A stretch of DNA of 36,010 bases, from the UHGV virus genome UHGV-0022223, one strand, 5' to 3'. Shown piece after piece: positions 2,982 to 10,793 of the stretch; the stretch's first letter is position 1, and the number at the start of each line of letters is the position of its first letter. The notes under the pieces are model-generated. The model saw only the letters and a list, made by a program, of their open reading frames with translations. It was not told the origin of the DNA and ran no database searches. The translations under genes were made by a program, and so were the position numbers. The stretch is from a virus.

Positions 2982-3090
2982 CAGGATTCCCCTTCTGTGC
3001 CAGCAGATAACAGAGGCGGCGAACAAACACTTCTGCCCAGTTCAGTTTTACGGCCTGCTGCCGGGTTGGTCTTCTGGCAAAATCAATCAT
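2974..3090 (-). CDS. Small early protein (possible Kil-like), hypothetical
   Basis: Track ORF 2974..3156 begins at GTG without RBS; internal ATG at 3090 (MIDFARRP...) has a strong RBS AAGGAGA. Confidence 0.35.
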   Translation of the reverse strand: MIDFARRPTRQQAVKLNWAEVFVRRLCYLLAQKGNPDV

Positions 3091-3176
3091 ATTGATCTCC
3101 TTGTTATGCCTGTCTTTTATCCACTTCAGGCTCGGTGGTATGCTGGTAGTTCTCACACAGCCAGCAAGGAATAACT

Positions 3177-4197: not shown

Positions 4198-5502
4198 TTA
4201 TTGACGATTAAAGTAGTTAGAGTTTAGCTCTTTAGGGAAGTAGTGTTTACGATTTACCCAAACAAATCCATCAACTTTTGATATCACAGCGACATCAACA
4301 GGCCCACCGACAGTTTCATAATCATGTGATACTTTTCTTTTGAATGCAGTGATGTTCACTAATGATTCGGCCATATACGCAAGATCTGCCTTCCCAAGTG
4401 ATTGCAACATCGATATCATTTTATTTGTATGGTTATTAACAATATAGCTTTCAAGTTTAGTATCGTGATCTTGTAAAAGTACGTTTTTGAGTTCCTCAAT
4501 TTCACTGGAGAAGTGATTGGCTAGTACTCCATTGTTCATTGCAGGGAAAATATTGCTAGAAACATAATGATTAAGCCGATCAAAAACTTCCTCTGTAAGA
4601 GTTCTGTTAAAATTAATGATGTTAGGGTTGCACCCATCAATGAAAGTTACTACTTCATCTTCTTGAGCAAATGGTATAACAAACCCCATATTGGTTACCT
4701 CATTATGGGATTTCTCATCAATATTATGGATCATCAATTTGTTTTTAAAAATGCCGTAGATATGAAGAGTGCAAATGGAAGGGTAATATTCTTCCTCTCC
4801 ATAACCTGTTATAACAATCCCTGAATATGTACGACTAGCATGGACTTTGAAAATTAAACAAGTGGAATATAATATGACTTTTTCCATAAGCTCTTGCTGT
4901 ATATTTTCACAGTTATCAAGAACAATAATTGATGAAATGTATGGCGATATTAAATCTTGTATATATGCTAAAGCATCATTAAACTCTTCTGTATCAAACC
5001 CTTCGAAAAAGAGATTATTCCTTAAGATTCCTATCTCTAAATCAAAGGCTTGCTTAACTATGTTTTGAAAAATAACATTGTCGAGTTCAACGGCGGGGTT
5101 CATTGTTAAATAGTTTACTACATTATTATCATTAATGTATCTCATCAAACCTTTGAGGTTATCAACAACAAGGTTTATAACGCAAGCCTCTCTCATTTCA
5201 TTTGTTATAAGGTCTGAGTTACCATTGATGAATTTTACAAAGTCATTAACATATTCTTTAATGGTAGGGAAACTAGTTTTCCCCAATTGTTTTCTATAGG
5301 ATTTAATTATAAGTTCCCACGGTGCGCCACCCAGTGTCGCATTATTATAAATCATGATCCCCACGGGATGGTGTTTAGATAGTTCGAATAGTTTTTCCGC
5401 ACTATTATTTATTTTTACTAATCTATTATGCTCTGTGGTGACTGCAGAGTCAGCAGCAAGGGCGATTCCAGTATTATTTATTACAACAATCTCAGCTGTC
5501 AT
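4198..5502 (-). CDS. 434-aa protein with proteasome-beta/HslV-like Ntn-hydrolase sequence blocks and a large internal insertion; AT-rich moron
   Basis: Long ORF in strongly AT-rich DNA. Starts MTAEIVVINNTGIALAADSAVT...KLF (Thr after Met, Asp about 16 residues later, Lys before LF), has a TGYGEEE block, and ends GGPVDVAVISKVDGFV, which closely resembles the proteasome beta C-terminal strand recalled from memory. Confidence 0.8.
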   Translation of the reverse strand: MTAEIVVINNTGIALAADSAVTTEHNRLVKINNSAEKLFELSKHHPVGIMIYNNATLGGAPWELIIKSYRKQLGKTSFPTIKEYVNDFVKFINGNSDLITNEMREACVINLVVDNLKGLMRYINDNNVVNYLTMNPAVELDNVIFQNIVKQAFDLEIGILRNNLFFEGFDTEEFNDALAYIQDLISPYISSIIVLDNCENIQQELMEKVILYSTCLIFKVHASRTYSGIVITGYGEEEYYPSICTLHIYGIFKNKLMIHNIDEKSHNEVTNMGFVIPFAQEDEVVTFIDGCNPNIINFNRTLTEEVFDRLNHYVSSNIFPAMNNGVLANHFSSEIEELKNVLLQDHDTKLESYIVNNHTNKMISMLQSLGKADLAYMAESLVNITAFKRKVSHDYETVGGPVDVAVISKVDGFVWVNRKHYFPKELNSNYFNRQ

Positions 5503-5641: not shown

Positions 5642-6028
5642 TCAGTCCCCCTGCGAGCGAATCCGCCCCTTCATGTACTTCTCATACAGCTCATCCAGTT
5701 CCTTAAGACGTATCGAAAAGATGCGGAGCATGTTCTGTTGCTCTTCTTCTGGCAGCTGGCGGTAGAGCTCAAGCAGGCGCTGTTCGTCCGGCTTAAGTCC
5801 GTCCTTCTCGCCGACATCCTCACCGAGTAACCAAGGCACAGACACGCCAGCTGCGTCAGCGACAGCGAGAGCTGATTTCTTGCTGATCACGCCTTTTTTA
5901 AACCAGCCGTTCACAGACTGCGGGGTTACCCCAGCAACCCTGGCCATATCGGATTTGGTCATACCGCGCCCGTTCAGCTCTGAAAGGCGTTCGACAAGTA
6001 TCGGATTAAGTACGGTTTTCTCTTTCAT
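5642..6028 (-). CDS. Prophage repressor, HTH XRE family, DicA/RacR-like (no S24 peptidase domain)
   Basis: 128 aa; N-terminal HTH (MTKSDMARVAGVTPQSVNGWF) and a C-terminal LLELYRQLPEEEQ segment resembling DicA from memory; divergent from a Cro-like gene with operators between them. Confidence 0.75.
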   Translation of the reverse strand: MKEKTVLNPILVERLSELNGRGMTKSDMARVAGVTPQSVNGWFKKGVISKKSALAVADAAGVSVPWLLGEDVGEKDGLKPDEQRLLELYRQLPEEEQQNMLRIFSIRLKELDELYEKYMKGRIRSQGD

Positions 6029-6362: not shown

Positions 6363-6902
6363 ATGCAATCACTTACGTATCAACAGAGTAACGGGTTCAT
6401 TTCAGCAGCGCTGATAAATCGCGCTCAACCAAAACCGGGCGTCAGTTGTGGTGCCCTCCGTGATGCTGTTCGCGCCTGGTCAGCAGTAGCCGGGCAGGAC
6501 GTTGTAACGGCCCTGATCGTTGAAGAGTGGCACCGGATAGGTGGCGAAGGTATCGACTTTCCGGCAGATCACAGCCGTGCCCGGCAGAAGCTGTTCCGCT
6601 TCTTGGATAACCATTTCAACAGCGAACGGTACCGCGAGAACGTCCGCCAGCTGACGCCGGCAATCCTCGCTGTCCTGCCGATTGAATACCGCAATCGTCT
6701 GCTACCAGAAGACAACGTAATGGCTCGTCTGGCAAGGCTGGAGAAGGAAACCAGCGAAGCGAAGATTGCTGTCGCAATGGATGCGCCACGTCATCAGAAG
6801 CTGAAAGAGTTGAGCGAGGGGATCGTGGAGATGTATCGCGTTGACCCTGGGTTAACCGGTCCGTTGATGGAAATGGTGCAGATTATGCTGGGGGCTATAT
6901 GA
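6363..6902 (+). CDS. YdaT-like / CII-position regulator (hypothetical)
   Basis: 179-aa ORF with RBS AAGGAA directly after the cro-like gene; position matches Rac ydaT. Confidence 0.5.
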   Translation: MQSLTYQQSNGFISAALINRAQPKPGVSCGALRDAVRAWSAVAGQDVVTALIVEEWHRIGGEGIDFPADHSRARQKLFRFLDNHFNSERYRENVRQLTPAILAVLPIEYRNRLLPEDNVMARLARLEKETSEAKIAVAMDAPRHQKLKELSEGIVEMYRVDPGLTGPLMEMVQIMLGAI

Positions 6903-6986
6903 CCGGTTCAAAAATGGCGAAAGCCGCGGTGCTCGAACACCAACGGCTTTCAGGTGCAAAAACAGTGCGTAATTGCGGAGAACAGT

Positions 6987-7895
6987 ATGTCAAACACCGC
7001 TGAAATAATCAATTTCCCAAATAAAACCGAACAACCGGGAGGTCGTATGGCCGACCTGTCGAACGGGTATACCAAGGTCGCTAACGAGATCCAACAGCTT
7101 AAGCCTCGCCTGAGACTGTCAGGCCGGGAATGGCAATGTTTTGAGGCGGTGATCTGGCTTACCTACGGCTGGAACAAGAAACAGGACCGCGTGACAAATA
7201 CGGTTATTGCCGAGCTTACGGGCCTGAGCGATACGCATGTATCGGACGCGCTTAAGTCTCTCGCAGAACGCAAAATCATCTTTTCACAGAAGCAGGGCAT
7301 GATGAAAATCGTCGGTGTAAACACTGACCTTTCAGCATGGATTTTAGACAAACCGGAAACGGGAAGAAAATTCCCGAAAACAGGAAAATCCTTCCCGAAA
7401 TCAGGAATAACCTTCCCGAAAACGGTAGACACCCAATACAAGAACAAGAACAGTATTAAAAGATCTTCGTCCGAGAATTCTGACGAATCCTCTGACGCAC
7501 GTCTGAAGAAATTTTTATCAACTCATCCTGAAGCTGCGGTCTACACACCATCCGGTGCGAAGTGGGGCTCTGCTGAAGACCTCGAGACAGCTAAGTGGAT
7601 TTCCTCCAGGGTGAAGCTGATTAACCCAACCTGCAAAGCCCCGGACATGACCTCCTGGTCTAACACTGTTCGCCTGATGCGCCAGATAGACGACCGGTCG
7701 CACCAGGACATCTGCGCGCTGTATGACTGGGCTAGCAAACACCACTTCTGGCAGACCAACATCCTGAGTCCCGAAAGCCTGCGTAAGCAGTGGGACAAGC
7801 TGACAATGCAGCGTAACGCCGGAGGTGAGCAGCGCGCTGTCAAGCCAGATCTGGACTTCAACAACACTGACTGGGCCTATGGGGTGATCCGATGA
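6987..7895 (+). CDS. O: Replication initiator, lambda O-like
   Basis: Start at internal ATG (MSNTAEIINFP...) with RBS GGAGAA; N-terminus and RMADLSNGY resemble lambda O from memory; iterons inside the gene; stop overlaps the P start. Confidence 0.75.
   Translation: MSNTAEIINFPNKTEQPGGRMADLSNGYTKVANEIQQLKPRLRLSGREWQCFEAVIWLTYGWNKKQDRVTNTVIAELTGLSDTHVSDALKSLAERKIIFSQKQGMMKIVGVNTDLSAWILDKPETGRKFPKTGKSFPKSGITFPKTVDTQYKNKNSIKRSSSENSDESSDARLKKFLSTHPEAAVYTPSGAKWGSAEDLETAKWISSRVKLINPTCKAPDMTSWSNTVRLMRQIDDRSHQDICALYDWASKHHFWQTNILSPESLRKQWDKLTMQRNAGGEQRAVKPDLDFNNTDWAYGVIR
7353..7432 (+). repeat. Origin iterons inside the O gene (about four direct repeats) followed by an AT-rich stretch
   Basis: CCGGAAACGGGAAGAA, TTCCCGAAAACAGGAAAA, TTCCCGAAATCAGGAATA, TTCCCGAAAACGGTAGAC; each encodes part of the FPKTGK-like peptide repeat. 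Confidence 0.7.
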
Positions 7896-8581
7896 AATCT
7901 CTTGCAGAGCAGATGCGTAACCACGACCGCGAGCAGATGAGCCGCATGGCCCATAACCTGCCAGAGCAGTACCAGGAGTGCGCGCCGGTCGAGCAGGTGG
8001 CGCAGGTATTCAACAAGCTGTTCAACGAGCTGCGCGCCGCGTTCCCGGCCAGCATGGCGAACTTCCGCACCCAGGAAGACCTGAACGAATTCCGCCGTCA
8101 GTGGCTGCTGGCGTTTCAGGAGAACGGGATCCACACCATGGCTCAGGTCGATGCCGGCATGCGCATTGCCCGCCGCCAGGAGCGCCCATTCCTGCCGTCG
8201 CCGGGCCAGTTCGTCGCCTGGTGCAAGCAGAGCGGCGGCGCGCTGGGCGTCAACGTTGACCAGGTGATCGCCGAATACTGGGACTGGCGTAACCGCTCGT
8301 TCGAATTCATCTCCAGCGAGCAATTTCCATGGTCGCAGCCGGTCATGTACCACATTTGCGTAGAATTGCGCCACCGCAGCACCGAGCGCCAGTTAACGCA
8401 TGGTGAACTGGCACGCGAGGCAGGCGATCTGCTGGACATGTGGGAAAGGCGCGTCACCGAGGGTAAGCCAGTGCCGCCGGTACGCCGGGCTATTGCCGCA
8501 CCAGCTGCCGAGCAAGGGCCGACGCCGATCCAGCTGCTGCTGGCCAAGTACAACCGCAACAAGTCGAACGGGATGGTGTGA
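7892..8581 (+). CDS. P: Replication protein P-like helicase loader
   Basis: 229 aa with long matches to lambda P recalled from memory (DREQM, MPEQY, FPAS, RQW, ENGI, RPFLPSPGQFVAWC); ATGA overlap with O. Confidence 0.85.
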   Translation: MKSLAEQMRNHDREQMSRMAHNLPEQYQECAPVEQVAQVFNKLFNELRAAFPASMANFRTQEDLNEFRRQWLLAFQENGIHTMAQVDAGMRIARRQERPFLPSPGQFVAWCKQSGGALGVNVDQVIAEYWDWRNRSFEFISSEQFPWSQPVMYHICVELRHRSTERQLTHGELAREAGDLLDMWERRVTEGKPVPPVRRAIAAPAAEQGPTPIQLLLAKYNRNKSNGMV

Positions 8582-8582
8582 C

Positions 8583-8822
8583 ATGAACATAACAATCCGT
8601 GAGCAGGTGCTGGCAGCCCTGCGCAACAACCCAGGGTTGAACAACGCCAAACTGGCAGGGCTTCCCGGAGTGGTACATCATCGATCAGGACTATCGGGGG
8701 CAGAAGTACGCGAAGGACAAGCAGGTTGCGCGTTGTGGCAACGCAGTTCCGCCGCCATTCGCCGAGGCACTGGTGAGGGCTAATTTACCGGAGCTTTGTC
8801 AGCAGAAAGAGATCGCAGCTTA
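8583..8822 (+). pseudogene. Degraded gene: 28-codon N-terminal frame joined out of frame to a DNA methyltransferase C-terminal fragment
   Basis: ATG at 8583 runs into a frame change; from about 8602 a second frame encodes ...CGNAVPPPFAEALVRANLPELCQQKEIAA, resembling the C-terminal motif of DNA methyltransferases; no upstream catalytic motifs. Confidence 0.35.
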
Positions 8823-8922
8823 ATGTCCGAGTTTCAGAACATGGTGTAACAAATCCTGCTACTTCAATGACGTAGATTCAAACCTGATATAATTAGGCTC
8901 TTCACAACACGAGGAGCCTAAA

Positions 8923-9159
8923 ATGCACCATTACATGATCCCTATCAACGGAACTGTTCACCTGATCAAGACTGACTCTCTAATCCCTGAAGGGACTGAG
9001 TATAGCTTTGAAGGAGAAAGTCTAATCTGCGCTCATGCCACTTTTAAATCTGGGACGTATGGCTTCCTGATACCAAAGGGAAATCAGTTGAATAGAGAGC
9101 ATGCGTTCTGGCATGTAAGTGGAATTCACCCTAATCCCCTGGGAATGGATAAATCGTAA
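8923..9159 (+). CDS. Hypothetical 78-aa protein in AT-rich insert
   Basis: RBS GAGGAG before the ATG; perfect TATAAT at 8887-8892 upstream; lower GC than flanks. Confidence 0.5.
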   Translation: MHHYMIPINGTVHLIKTDSLIPEGTEYSFEGESLICAHATFKSGTYGFLIPKGNQLNREHAFWHVSGIHPNPLGMDKS

Positions 9160-9168
9160 TCCATAATA

Positions 9169-9205
9169 TGCATGCCATCGTCCTGAACATACGGTGGCAT
9201 GCATC
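9169..9205. repeat. Perfect 10-bp inverted repeat ATGCATGCCA / TGGCATGCAT with 17-nt spacer
   Basis: Arms at 9169-9178 and 9196-9205 are exact reverse complements; no U tract follows. Confidence 0.7.
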
Positions 9206-9270
9206 CGGCACTACAACAGAAACGTTAAAGTGCAAACAATACAATTCGAGCAATATTCAACCTGTCACAG

Positions 9271-9412
9271 ATGGCGAATACCACCGCCATTTCGTGCATT
9301 CTGTGGTTTCTATTACCCATTGCGTTAATGCTGTCCAATCATCAGCTCGCTGAGGCGCTGGTTAGGGCTAACCTACAGGAGCTTTGTCAGCAGAAACAAA
9401 TAGCAGCGTAAT
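9271..9412 (+). other. Small ORF fusing a hydrophobic N-terminus to a second diverged copy of the methyltransferase 3' end
   Basis: MANTTAISCILWFLLPIALMLSNHQ then LAEALVRANLQELCQQKQIAA; 9335-9412 is about 80 percent identical to 8745-8822. Confidence 0.25.
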
Positions 9413-9428
9413 AAAACATCGCTAATTC

Positions 9429-9457
9429 AACCCGCTACGGCGGGTTTTCTTTTTTTA
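9429..9457 (+). terminator. Rho-independent terminator
   Basis: AACCCGC-tacg-GCGGGTT followed by a T-rich tract. Confidence 0.7.
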
Positions 9458-9495
9458 CTACTGACAGAAAATTAACAATTTGTGCTCTTAAAGCG

Positions 9496-9538
9496 TTGAT
9501 CATTTCCGCGCATAGGTATACTGTATAAAAACACAGTA
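9496..9538 (+). promoter_or_regulatory. Promoter with overlapping LexA (SOS) box for the dinI-like gene
   Basis: TTGATC, about 15-bp spacer, TATACT; TACTGTATAAAAACACAGTA at 9519-9538 fits the LexA consensus CTGT-N8-ACAG. Confidence 0.75.
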
Positions 9539-9556
9539 AATGCAATGGGGGCCATT

Positions 9557-9790
9557 ATGAAAGTTGAATTAACCATTGATCGCATGAAAGAACTTCCTAA
9601 AGGCGCAGTACCAGCACTGGAGAAAGAACTGCTTAAGCGCCTGAATGATCACTATGACAATTGCAGGCTCACAATCCGCCGTGCCGGGGCCGATGGGTTA
9701 AGTGTTTTTGGTGGTGACAAGGACGATAAAAAGAAAATTGAATCAATCCTCCAGGATACCTGGGAAAGCGCTGACGACTGGTTTTATTAG
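9557..9790 (+). CDS. dinI: DinI-family DNA-damage-inducible protein
   Basis: MKVELTIDR... with C-terminal ILQDTWESADDWFY resembling E. coli DinI from memory; second ATG of the track ORF; LexA box upstream. Confidence 0.8.
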   Translation: MKVELTIDRMKELPKGAVPALEKELLKRLNDHYDNCRLTIRRAGADGLSVFGGDKDDKKKIESILQDTWESADDWFY

Positions 9791-9907
9791 AATTGCGCTT
9801 AAGGCTGGCGCGCATTTTTCAGAATACCGCAATTTGCGTAACCCTCTGATGCTGCTGCCGACAATCTTTAATCGCGTCTGTTAGTCGCTCGAAGGGAGAA
9901 CATAAAT

Positions 9908-10156
9908 GTGAGTGATTCAGCTTTGCAAACGTCAGAAGACAACTGGTATGACATTGTAAGAAGGTCTGACGGCTGCGTGGTGTTTAGCTTTCCTTCATCG
10001 GGCAGGCATCTAATTTATCGCGTCAATGGCATGGTTTCTATGCGGCCTTTGCTGGATGATGAAGAGGTCTTTACTCCTAATGGTTTTATGCAGTTTATTC
10101 ACCGTCTCGGCTACCGGGTAACCCCACCTTCTGATAATATGAAATCAACGGTCTGA
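9908..10156 (+). CDS. Hypothetical protein (GTG start)
   Basis: 82-aa ORF with RBS AAGGGAGA before the GTG. Confidence 0.45.
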   Translation: MSDSALQTSEDNWYDIVRRSDGCVVFSFPSSGRHLIYRVNGMVSMRPLLDDEEVFTPNGFMQFIHRLGYRVTPPSDNMKSTV

Positions 10157-10190
10157 ACAACCGTAACCTACTGCGCCACGGAGAGAAACC

Positions 10191-10793
10191 ATGGCGCACG
10201 AACTACAACTCATCAAGCATTCCTCAGGAATCCTGATCCCCGCTACGCCGGAGACCAGTGATTTACTGCAATCAAAAATCAAACTCGGCTCCGTACTGGT
10301 GGCTGAGTTCCGGCAGGTACGCAACCCGGCCTTTCACCGTCGTTTCTTCGCGTTACTCAATCTCGGTTTCGAATACTGGGAACCCACCGGCGGGGCAATC
10401 TCCTCCAACGAACGCAAACTCGTTAATGGTTATGCCAGATTCCTTGCATCATACGGCGGCAATGAAAGCGCTCTGCTGGATGCTGCTGAGCAGTATCTGG
10501 AGCAGATCGCCAGTCGGCGTATCACGAACGGCATAAGTCTGTGTAAATCCTTCGACGCTTACCGCGCATGGGTGACCGTCGAAGCCGGGCACTATGACGC
10601 AATCCAGTTACCAGATGGAACTCTCCGCAAACATCCCCGCAGTATCTCATTCGCAAATATGGATGAAACTGAGTTCCAGCAGCTGTACAAAGCCGCGCTC
10701 GATGTTCTGTGGCGATGGATACTCTCCCGATCATTTCGCAGTTGTGAAGAGGCAGAAAACGCCGCCGCCCAGCTGATGAGCTTTGCGGGGTGA
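10191..10793 (+). CDS. Nin-region protein, YbcN/DUF1367-like
   Basis: 200-aa ORF with RBS GGAGAGA; RNPAFHRRFFALLNLGFEYWEP motif recalled as typical of the YbcN family; precedes YbcO-like and RusA as in DLP12. Confidence 0.55.
   Translation: MAHELQLIKHSSGILIPATPETSDLLQSKIKLGSVLVAEFRQVRNPAFHRRFFALLNLGFEYWEPTGGAISSNERKLVNGYARFLASYGGNESALLDAAEQYLEQIASRRITNGISLCKSFDAYRAWVTVEAGHYDAIQLPDGTLRKHPRSISFANMDETEFQQLYKAALDVLWRWILSRSFRSCEEAENAAAQLMSFAG

Follow-up and report, generated by a model that had tools for sequence, protein, structure and literature searches.

Methyltransferase gene tails around an accessory cassette in a lambda-like Escherichia coli prophage: a probable multi-layer recombination scar

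Gene fragments and features of the interval

The window, a stretch of viral DNA of 36,010 nucleotides (UHGV-0022223), contains between positions 8583 and 9457 a series of gene fragments and small elements that are assigned, by sequence comparison, to the left end of the nin region of a lambda-like, mEp237/phi80-like E. coli prophage. All features described here lie on the plus strand unless stated otherwise. An earlier note, made from the sequence alone, read the interval from its start as a DNA methyltransferase (MTase). This holds for positions 8656–8823, which are an MTase remnant, but 8583–8663 are codons of a Ren-like (winged-helix) exclusion gene: the first 27 codons, here termed ren', are 100% identical to ren of phage mEp237 (L001 1684–1764) and are truncated by a 718-bp deletion. 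Full-length mEp237 Ren matches phrog_142 at 1.8e-28. While a Ren-like protein has a full length of ~114 aa and a winged-helix domain, the window has the 27 authentic codons followed by a frameshifted tail.

The MTase remnant comprises the last 55 codons and the stop of a C5 cytosine MTase gene (QGFPEWYII...CGNAVPPPFAEALVRANLPELCQQKEIAA), as delineated by alignment with the intact MTases of Klebsiella phage 5 LV-2017, E. coli H6 and the prophage L033, and it is 91% identical to MTase residues 661–715 (tblastn). Like phage C5 MTases of ~650–715 aa (PF00145-related; phrog_23072, phrog_116), it ends in their last 55 residues, including the CGNAVPP motif; unlike them, it is devoid of the target-recognition and catalytic parts. 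A C5 MTase contains a complete PF00145 catalytic domain in one open frame, with the AdoMet-binding motif I FxGxG, the catalytic Cys of motif IV and the ENV motif; FAGGGG and ENV are present in the intact L033 enzyme, whereas the window retains the last 55 codons only, and even the longer mEp237 fragment (134 aa) covers just profile positions 270–320 of 324. With these parts absent, no start codon and a frame different from that of ren', the remnant cannot encode an enzyme, in accordance with the degraded, frame-disrupted gene described earlier. Both the MTase and the ren remnants are probably dead.

Through the deletion, ren codons 1–27 run directly, but out of frame, into the final 55 codons of the MTase. 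The result is a 66-aa chimeric ORF (8583–8783) consisting of 27 Ren residues and 39 out-of-frame residues encoded by MTase DNA, which is found in RefSeq as a hypothetical protein (PGAP CDS WP_001299077.1, at the same place in strain AR_0118). The chimera has no PHROG match and only a sub-threshold HTH_24 match at residues 5–25; this "hypothetical protein" is a junction artefact.

A repeat search revealed the end of the remnant twice, as a direct repeat of 8759–8824 (copy A) and 9347–9412 (copy B) with a length of 66 nt, 85% identity and no gaps. The copies differ by 10 mismatches in 66 positions, share a longest identical run of 19 nt and match each other in blastn at E = 1.8e-12. The two diverged MTase 3' copies claimed previously are real, but clear homology starts ~12–14 nt to the right of 8745 and 9335, where they had been placed. 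Both translations end in ...AEALVRANL(P/Q)ELCQQK(E/Q)IAA, with stops at 8821–8823 and 9409–9411, and the repeat is identified by its similarity to intact genes as the 3' end of a phage C5 cytosine MTase gene. Copy A is an MTase tail with an A-type allele. Copy B, a tail remnant with a B-type allele, has a sharp left boundary, as matches to other tail-plus-dinI prophages start at 9345–9347; it is 97% identical to the tail remnant of E. coli MSB1_9D and 97–98% identical to the tails of other prophages. These comparisons support the view that the two tails are homologous remnants of different alleles. A crossover within copy B near 9361, suggested by matches to L015 over the first 15 nt and to ECCWS199 over the remainder, was considered and rejected because MSB1_9D has the whole B-type tail as a single variant. 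The second tail is unannotated in window-type and mEp237 records.

The bracketed segment (8825–9346) measures 522 bp with 43.5% GC, compared with 56% in the ren/MTase remnant and the O/P genes, and thus corresponds to the ~520-bp AT-rich segment noted before. The perfect -10 element reported within it, TATAAT at 8888–8893, belongs to a TG-extended -10, TGATATAAT, at 8885–8893 (TGnTATAAT), which is conserved ahead of 40%-identical homologues of the downstream gene. Read from the sequence, a putative promoter spans 8867–8893 (ATGACG, 15-nt spacer, TATAAT, TG extension), and the mEp237 record also annotates a promoter there. A strict sigma-70 scan found no promoter at this site, owing to the poor -35. 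An inverted repeat search located a leader stem-loop of 11 bp at 8893–8921, folding at -16.4 kcal/mol, the 3' arm of which holds the Shine-Dalgarno sequence GAGGAG of orf78; the stem is kept via different sequences in divergent lineages.

The 78-aa ORF of the earlier note, orf78, occupies 8923–9159, and the homology search proposed for it led to phrog_30079 (6.9e-49), a PHROG family that carries no functional label; no Pfam match was obtained. Homologues of ~40% identity and the same length share 18 invariant residues among six sequences from four lineages, and orf78 conforms to this family in its length (~75–78 aa) and in the invariant M1, Y4, P7, L14, K16, P22, G24, G31 and C36, together with H38, Y46-G47, L49, G53 and P70-N-P-L73. 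The family is rare: an exhaustive HMMER search of 1.84 billion representative proteins gave 4–5 credible clusters, a word-indexed protein search gave two close clusters only, and no relative was found in GTDB representative genomes. The AF2 model (pLDDT 80.5) displays five strands and one helix, with no significant neighbor in PDB or BFVD (best E = 0.11 and 0.016, TM <0.55). Close alleles have dN/dS of 0.6–1.1 from just 5–14 substitutions, which are too few to demonstrate selection on orf78 in the window lineage.

Nine nucleotides past the orf78 stop lies a stable hairpin (9168–9204; inverted repeat with 14-nt arms; -22.2 kcal/mol, z = -3.65 in RNA folding), which lacks a T-run and is present in all cassette variants. 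Its perfect 10-nt core, ATGCATGCCA / TGGCATGCAT, accounts for the 10-bp perfect palindrome of the earlier note; it is part of a 14-bp interrupted inverted repeat, and no contiguous palindrome of at least 8 bp exists in 8500–9500. A covariance-model search of 8400–10200 on both strands found no Rfam 15 match at E <= 1. The other ORFs of at least 60 aa in the insert, on either strand, are one of 61 aa at 9168–9353 (+) and one of 60 aa, antisense, at 9022–9204.

The remainder of the cassette is a spacer (9205–9346), collinear at ~92% identity with L015 and L016, which holds the start of a small hydrophobic ORF (9271–9411) that is open in all six cassette sequence variants found. The spacer is not similar to MTase genes (shuffle p = 0.15–0.64 by local alignment with five MTase 3' regions and 500 shuffles). 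An in-register resemblance of TAATGCTGT / 'CVNAV' in the spacer to MTase is anecdotal.

Beyond copy B, a terminator scan placed an intrinsic terminator (AACCCGCTACGGCGGGTT plus T-run) at 9429–9457, the first one 3' of orf78. A homologous hairpin lies directly 3' of the MTase stop in Klebsiella phage 5 LV-2017. A dinI-family gene (9557–9790; PF06183 at 3.8e-26, phrog_189) forms the module right of the joint, and its promoter contains TACTGTATAAAAACACAGTA at 9519–9538, read as a LexA box, for which the consensus is CTGT-N8-ACAG; the box is conserved in all aligned dinI modules. Tail B, terminator and LexA-controlled dinI reproduce the same junction as is found after intact MTases.

Related prophages and the succession of states

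Enterobacteria phage mEp237 (NC_019704 / JQ182730) is 99.7% identical to the window over 8655–10000, and the whole region is matched in two pieces. The two blastn pieces overlap by 9 nt at 8655–8663, where the microhomology GCAGGGCTT marks the deletion junction; the same sequence is found at both L001 1756–1764 and 2474–2482, and 718 bp are absent from the window relative to mEp237. The phage keeps a full ren, a 65-aa gene and 370 nt of MTase (a 134-codon fragment). Its depositors annotated a C-terminal MTase fragment, a promoter, a 78-aa hypothetical protein and DinI; a literature search on mEp237 returned irrelevant matches only.

In the IMG/VR prophages L033 and L044, the MTase is intact (652 aa), with orf78, tail B and dinI coming after it; from L001 2273 onward, both are 99.87% identical to mEp237. 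L015 and L016 encode an intact 712-aa MTase, and window positions 8655–9401 are collinear with them at 91.6%. Tail A, cassette and tail B follow an intact MTase of 652–712 aa in L033, L044, L035, L036, L015 and L042. The earlier note had implied that the insertion was linked to the loss of the MTase body; these relatives contradict that link, and the same arrangement with an intact gene in relatives is the observation it had itself named beforehand as contrary. Since near-identical relatives have the arrangement with an intact MTase, the duplication predates the decay of the gene and is independent of it. The alignment with intact MTase relatives, as suggested in advance, yielded the breakpoints: a 5' truncation at L001 2272/2273 and then the microhomology deletion of 718 bp. 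MTase degradation is therefore the sum of these two later, unrelated events.

In Klebsiella phage 5 LV-2017, the intact MTase is followed immediately by the same terminator and a LexA-box dinI. H6-type and L017-type loci contain an intact MTase, promoter and orf78 homologue and no second tail; as these lineages have orf78 homologues after MTase without the duplication, the order MTase then orf78 is older than tail B. Tail B accompanies every orf78 allele of at least 88% identity for which downstream sequence is available, and no allele of 40–43%. To its right, three different modules are found, namely dinI, an 86-aa gene, or a 60-aa gene plus theta; likewise, the left joint is identical in KL53 and MSB1_9D, as is a 99-nt tail, yet one leads to dinI and the other to orf78'-theta. 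E. coli AR_0119 has the ren'-MTase junction of the window and a single tail adjoining dinI, with no cassette. Of the informative sites in this tail, the first six have the A-type state and the last four the B-type state, with the switch in the 19-nt identical run, and one of the bases of this tail is absent from copy B of the window.

Among 5,426 complete E. coli genomes, the cassette occurs in 32 (31 in the window form and one in the mEp237 form), with orf78 unannotated in all of them, and the AR_0119 form in ~4. An assembly artefact is rejected, as the arrangement is present in 32 complete genomes, one sequenced phage and >20 IMG/VR contigs. The near-identical relatives form a reductive series from intact MTase through 5' truncation and 718-bp deletion to cassette loss.

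Origin of the second tail

We consider it highly probable (roughly 85%) that the interval is a multi-layer recombination scar with the following stepwise history. The most likely source of the duplication is an out-of-register junction formed by two phages, one with a C5-MTase, promoter, orf78, hairpin and spacer, the other with a C5-MTase, terminator and dinI. Illegitimate recombination would have joined them out of register, 65 nt before the stop of the second MTase, to give MTase (tail A), orf78 cassette, tail B, terminator and dinI; the 15% divergence of the tails would then reflect their origin from different alleles. No parent with orf78 and the spacer 9205–9346 but without tail B was found. 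As relatives show, this arrangement exists with an intact MTase and has spread to at least three downstream and several upstream contexts, with tail sequences serving as homology patches for exchange. The mEp237 lineage lost the 5' 1.6 kb of the MTase (left breakpoint L001 2272/2273), and comparison with mEp237 shows that, in the lineage of the window, deletion between the GCAGGGCTT copies then removed most of ren, the 65-aa gene and, from the MTase fragment, 202 nt, leaving an out-of-frame ren'-'MTase fusion. The sister lineage AR_0119 indicates that recombination between the two tails may remove the cassette again; its sequence could equally be explained by an intermolecular cross with another dinI-type tail.

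Exchange between the tails has to be viewed against known recombinases. Phage recombinases recombine sequences that are 12–22% diverged (PMC2327257, PMC3945230), and published minimal pairing lengths are 23–27 bp for Red-beta and 31–34 bp for RecA. The 19-nt identical run is below these lengths, so that tail-by-tail exchange should be inefficient.

A further reading, which we regard as possible but doubtful, is that the MTase tail has been kept as a portable homology arm, making the orf78 cassette and the dinI module exchangeable in the manner of the 'linker' sequences that the modular theory of phage evolution (Susskind-Botstein) reportedly proposed. If the last ~66 nt of the MTase gene were selected in this way, which is equally doubtful, they would let phage recombinases move modules between MTase-carrying phages. 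Tail remnants of ~60–100 nt precede dinI, and the left contexts in which they do so number at least five that are independent (window, ECCWS199, KL53, ES7 and Salmonella phage SEN34), the MTase has been 5'-truncated many separate times with the tail kept (fragments start at residues 594, 622, 637, 645, 655, 661, 674 and 688), the tail variants are themselves mosaic on a scale of tens of nucleotides, and tail B has three different right-hand neighbors. However, the same pattern is expected if selection removes joins that damage either the terminator and the dinI promoter or the orf78 promoter while repeated trimming shortens the remnants; joints with zero-length remnants are left out of the count, an ascertainment bias; and stretches of full identity are short, reaching 19 nt in the window. 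It is less likely still that tail B has been kept as a functional part of the cassette, as the C-terminus of a small membrane peptide (9271–9411, MANTTAISCILWFLLPIALMLSNH...) or as the 3' UTR and terminator of the orf78 transcript. In three of the six variants in which the hydrophobic ORF is open (window type, L037, L041), it shares the frame of the tail, and the sole T-run terminator downstream of orf78 lies just past tail B. The open frame of 31–46 codons is weak evidence, though, because the variants are only ~10% diverged; a 1-nt indel shifts the frame in L015, L039, L040, L042, L011 and L035, where the peptide stops early in the tail (at HRSLRRW) or reads the tail in another frame; the ATG is missing in L011 and L041; copy B of L015 has an in-frame TGA in the MTase frame; and no Shine-Dalgarno sequence precedes 9271.

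Two explanations that dispense with a join between phages fare worse. Tandem duplication in one phage genome, with the orf78 segment gained later between copies that diverged in place, is very improbable; it would suit collinear copies in the same orientation and might apply to the deepest event, but orf78 homologues directly follow the MTase without duplication in the divergent H6 and L017 lineages, 15% in-place divergence predicts a comparable divergence of the neighboring DNA among relatives, which is not seen, and copy B is nearly identical (97–98%) to tails in other prophages. Insertion by a mobile element or site-specific system, with the tails as target-site duplication, is scarcely credible. 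A direct repeat around a segment of foreign base composition would fit such an event; against this, 10 of the 66 positions are different between the copies, in contrast to the 99.7–100% identity of the surrounding DNA among relatives, and copy B with its right flank is the MTase-terminator-dinI junction of a different allele. To our knowledge, no IS element or transposon makes a 66-bp target duplication. Within the insert of the window, the search for signs of a mobile element gave copies that are 15% diverged, no terminal inverted repeats at either end, and no transposase or integrase in the 522 bp (ORF list; the Pfam search covered orf78). The out-of-register join thus remains preferred, and of the cassette insertion or module exchange invoked earlier, the separable cassette and the tail as a repeated place of joining and exchange in relatives are retained, while the link to loss of the MTase body is not.

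Comparison with known systems and meaning

In lambdoid phages, a moron is an added gene, equipped with a promoter and a terminator of its own, that separates two genes which adjoin each other in relatives, as recognized in HK97/HK022 comparative genomics. The orf78 segment is supported as a separable accessory cassette, and orf78, its presumed cargo, appears to behave as a moron: it lies between MTase and dinI, two genes that follow each other directly in Klebsiella phage 5 LV-2017, with tail and dinI adjoining in AR_0119 in the absence of the cassette; and the GC content of the cassette is lower (43.5% vs 56%). A promoter of its own is putative, with a consensus extended -10 but a poor -35. 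Unlike lambdoid morons, orf78 does not have its own T-run terminator, as the hairpin lacks a U-tract, and the right edge of the cassette is a 66-nt copy of the end of the upstream gene. Transcription of orf78 would start from its own extended -10 promoter and, in the absence of a T-run terminator belonging to orf78 itself, should continue across tail B as far as the terminator of the MTase-dinI junction, while dinI would be under separate LexA control. In four of five lineages orf78 is directly behind the MTase, and the two may also be functionally coupled.

The joints also resemble the mosaic 'novel joints' and homeologous-recombination 'shoulders' described in lambdoid genomes by Martinsohn et al. 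2008 (PMC2327257) and De Paepe et al. 2014 (PMC3945230). Blocks of ~92–100% identity are bounded by tails at 78–88%, with unrelated sequence beyond, and one crossover has been mapped inside a homology patch (AR_0119). In contrast to these, the present shoulder is very short, at 66 nt with 19 nt of identical core, and its occurrence in two copies within one genome means that it can also cause the cassette to be lost intramolecularly.

The locus is genuine but unexceptional as an outcome of mosaic phage evolution; features of this kind are known, and nothing points to a new type of system. Its main value lies in the four successive states that can be read from it and its near-identical relatives, i.e., intact gene with cassette, 5' truncation, microhomology deletion and repeat-mediated cassette loss, which show that both illegitimate and short-homology recombination have shaped one prophage. 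If the tail is truly a favored exchange point, it would offer an experimentally tractable linker for studying module exchange, and if it has been kept as a homology arm, it would provide a concrete, testable case of the 'linker' sequences of the modular theory of phage evolution.

The locus and the repeated methyltransferase tail

The interval lies in an E. coli lambdoid prophage between the CII-like (6363-6902), O-like (6954-7895) and P-like (7892-8581) genes on its left and DinI (9557-9790), an 82-aa gene, NinB/Orf (10191-10793), a DUF1364 gene, RusA and Q, in that order, on its right. By megablast, the surrounding 1.5 kb is matched at 99.8-99.9% identity by 31 of 5,426 complete E. coli genomes and at 99.7% by phage mEp237, where two matching pieces span 2,219 bp vs 1,501 bp. 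The immunity region includes a large uncharacterised gene, a 434-aa ORF (4198-5502, minus strand) that adjoins a repressor-like gene (5642-6028) and has phrog_5990, of unknown function, as its sole match (E = 4e-178).

The two diverged 3' ends of a methyltransferase (MTase) gene described in the earlier note are real. They form an ungapped direct repeat of 66 nt at 8759-8824 (tail A) and 9347-9412 (tail B) with 85% identity, 10 mismatches and an identical 19-nt core at 8790-8808 and 9378-9396 (blastn between copies, E = 1.8e-12), and each encodes a C5 cytosine methyltransferase C-terminus, ...AEALVRANL(P/Q)ELCQQK(E/Q)IAA*. The homology begins about 12 nt to the right of the starts originally assigned (copies at 8745-8822 and 9335-9412), and no MTase homology is detectable upstream of 9347, beyond the left edge of copy B. 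The bracketed segment was correctly described as AT-rich, about 520 bp long and equipped with a -10 element and a 78-aa ORF: it measures 522 bp with 43.5% GC, vs 56% to the left, and contains a TGATATAAT box (8885-8893), a GAGGAG ribosome-binding site serving the ORF (orf78, 8923-9159) and a hairpin with 14-bp arms (9168-9204; -22.2 kcal/mol, z = -3.65). The supposed 10-bp perfect palindrome is the perfect core of these arms; no contiguous palindrome of at least 8 bp is present. As for the interval being a degraded methyltransferase, the remnant is genuine, but the first 81 nt are the start of a Ren-like gene.

Order of duplication and decay

Downstream of P, mEp237 has a ren gene of 114 aa, then a 65-aa gene and a 134-codon C-terminal fragment of the MTase; a promoter that its depositors annotated comes next, ahead of the 78-aa gene and DinI. 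Aligned with mEp237, the window gives two blocks sharing 9 nt: mEp237 has GCAGGGCTT once within ren, at codons 25-27, and again 168 nt ahead of the MTase stop, and the window lacks the 718 bp in between. The product of this deletion is an out-of-frame 66-aa chimera of ren' (the first 27 ren codons) and MTase at 8583-8783, annotated in RefSeq as a hypothetical protein (WP_001299077.1, PGAP), followed by 55 orphan MTase codons; the MTase body is missing and its frame disrupted, as had been noted. In membership tests, the feature qualified neither as a functional MTase nor as a functional Ren.

The mEp237 fragment is in turn a truncated gene. The IMG/VR prophages L033 and L044, 99.87% identical to mEp237 from its position 2273 onward, carry an intact 652-aa MTase ORF with FAGGGG and ENV motifs. 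Since these near relatives retain the MTase and the mEp237 fragment is already truncated, the decay comprised two steps, each later than the duplication.

Intact MTases are followed by orf78, the hairpin, the spacer (9205-9346 in the window) and tail B in two groups of related loci, leading into dinI in L033, L044, L035 and L036 and into an 86-aa gene in L015, L016 and L042; window 8655-9401 is collinear with L015 at 91.6% identity. This arrangement contradicts the idea that loss of the MTase body was part of an insertion scar. Among 30 IMG/VR loci and other relatives, tail B occurs, always with the same spacer-tail joint, in every orf78 allele of at least 88% identity whose downstream sequence is available, and no second tail was found in the 40-43% alleles (H6, L017 and L050 types), which points to a single founding event. 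The duplication is therefore older than the MTase decay and belongs to the cassette. Beyond its right edge, tail B gives way to unrelated sequence in the different lineages: dinI, the 86-aa gene, or a theta homologue together with a 60-aa gene.

The module after the MTase/orf78 region in related prophages is in some cases dinI and in others a DNA polymerase III theta (HolE-like) gene (L005 3428-3685; L011 4747-5172; L045, which has both). In L041 (IMG/VR 2563366847_000002, 1671-2370), orf78 has no MTase tail on its left and keeps tail B on its right; upstream lie 82-aa and 154-aa genes that, on a reading of their sequence, resemble a HicA/HicB toxin-antitoxin pair, then another 154-aa gene.

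The cassette and its cargo

In the homology search proposed for the 78-aa ORF, the sole match was phrog_30079, a family of unknown function, with no Pfam hit; exhaustive searching across 1.84 billion representative proteins gave just four to five credible clusters. Length and 18 invariant residues are kept across four lineages at about 40% identity, and orf78 stands directly behind this MTase in four of five lineages. The AlphaFold model (pLDDT 80.5) has five strands and a C-terminal helix, with no significant structural neighbours; close alleles hold too few differences for dN/dS to inform. PGAP leaves orf78 unannotated in all 32 E. coli genomes carrying it (e.g., L006). We regard it as a genuine moron gene whose transcription probably starts at an extended -10 promoter of its own and stops at 9429-9457, and a functional tie to the MTase is a possibility.

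The TGATATAAT box is immediately followed by an 11-bp stem-loop, within 8885-8925, that has the orf78 Shine-Dalgarno sequence in its 3' arm. It recurs in L005 (about 3060-3100), L045 and L050, the stem being kept through different sequences in 40%-identical lineages, and in L045 it also precedes a different gene (GAGACTCC...GGAGTCTC). Transcription beginning ~7 nt downstream of the -10 element would leave out most of the 5' arm, so translation might be blocked by the stem solely on transcripts reading through from upstream. A small ORF (9271-9411) overlapping tail B encodes a hydrophobic peptide (MANTTAISCILWFLLPIALMLSNH...) and is open in all six cassette sequence variants found; its C-terminus varies: three variants read into the MTase tail in frame, two are frameshifted and end in HRSLRRW*, and L035 has a frameshifted form of 44 aa. 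The ORF lacks an obvious upstream ribosome-binding site, and could encode a small membrane peptide or be due to chance.

The tail as a point of exchange

Both single-tail arrangements exist. In Klebsiella phage 5 LV-2017, an intact 715-aa MTase directly abuts a GC hairpin terminator, beyond which lie a LexA box and dinI, the same junction as tail B, the terminator (9429-9457), the LexA box (9519-9538) and dinI in the window. In E. coli H6 and L017, what follows the intact MTase is the same putative TGATATAAT promoter with an orf78 homologue, and there is no second tail. The simplest history would have an MTase-orf78 phage joined, out of register and without homology, to an MTase-dinI phage at a point 65 nt short of the second MTase's stop; tails from two different alleles would account for 15% divergence within DNA that relatives otherwise share at 99.7-100% identity. 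We only infer this founding join, since the sequences searched yielded no parent that has the spacer and lacks tail B. The LexA box, TACTGTATAAAAACACAGTA, is near-consensus and conserved ahead of dinI in E. coli, in Salmonella phage SEN34 and in the Klebsiella phage.

Exchange at the MTase tail is a part of the proposed insertion or module-exchange scar that stands, separated from the loss of the MTase body. MTase tail remnants precede dinI modules in at least five contexts that differ in left partner and breakpoint; the breakpoints lie at about -65 in the window, -72 in ECCWS199, -99 in KL53, and about -60 in both ES7 and Salmonella phage SEN34. KL53 and MSB1_9D share a left joint and a 99-nt tail, followed by dinI in KL53 and orf78'-theta in MSB1_9D, and eight different lengths of C-terminal MTase fragment were seen. 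The 66-nt tail may be a selected linker, favoured for exchange; alternatively, it may be a mere survivor, as joins further right would harm neighbouring promoters and the terminator. The conserved tail also contains a Chi-like octamer (8770-8777 and 9358-9365; also in the L004, L015 and L009 tails), which as GCTGGTGA or GCTGGTGC in several alleles matches GCTGGTGG at 7/8 positions, the window's two copies matching at 6/8.

Strain AR_0119 has the ren'-MTase junction exactly as in the window, without the cassette. Its single tail is like copy A at the first six informative positions and like copy B at the last four; the switch therefore lies inside the 19-nt identical run. This form occurs in about four genomes. 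Lambda Red and phi80 RecT recombine sequences diverged by 12-22% (PMC2327257, PMC3945230), with quoted minimal pairing lengths of 23-27 bp for Red-beta and 31-34 bp for RecA; the 19 nt of the window fall below both, which fits cassette retention in most carriers.

The feature did not qualify as a transposon insertion or as a member of any Rfam family, and the mEp237 record already annotates most of its parts. It fits known lambdoid mosaicism, combining a moron with novel joints that carry gene remnants, a deletion at a microhomology and short homeologous shoulders, and is a new, well-resolved instance of an established process; the remaining novelty, if true, would be the selected 66-nt linker, the functional tie between orf78 and the MTase, and the expression of the small hydrophobic ORF.
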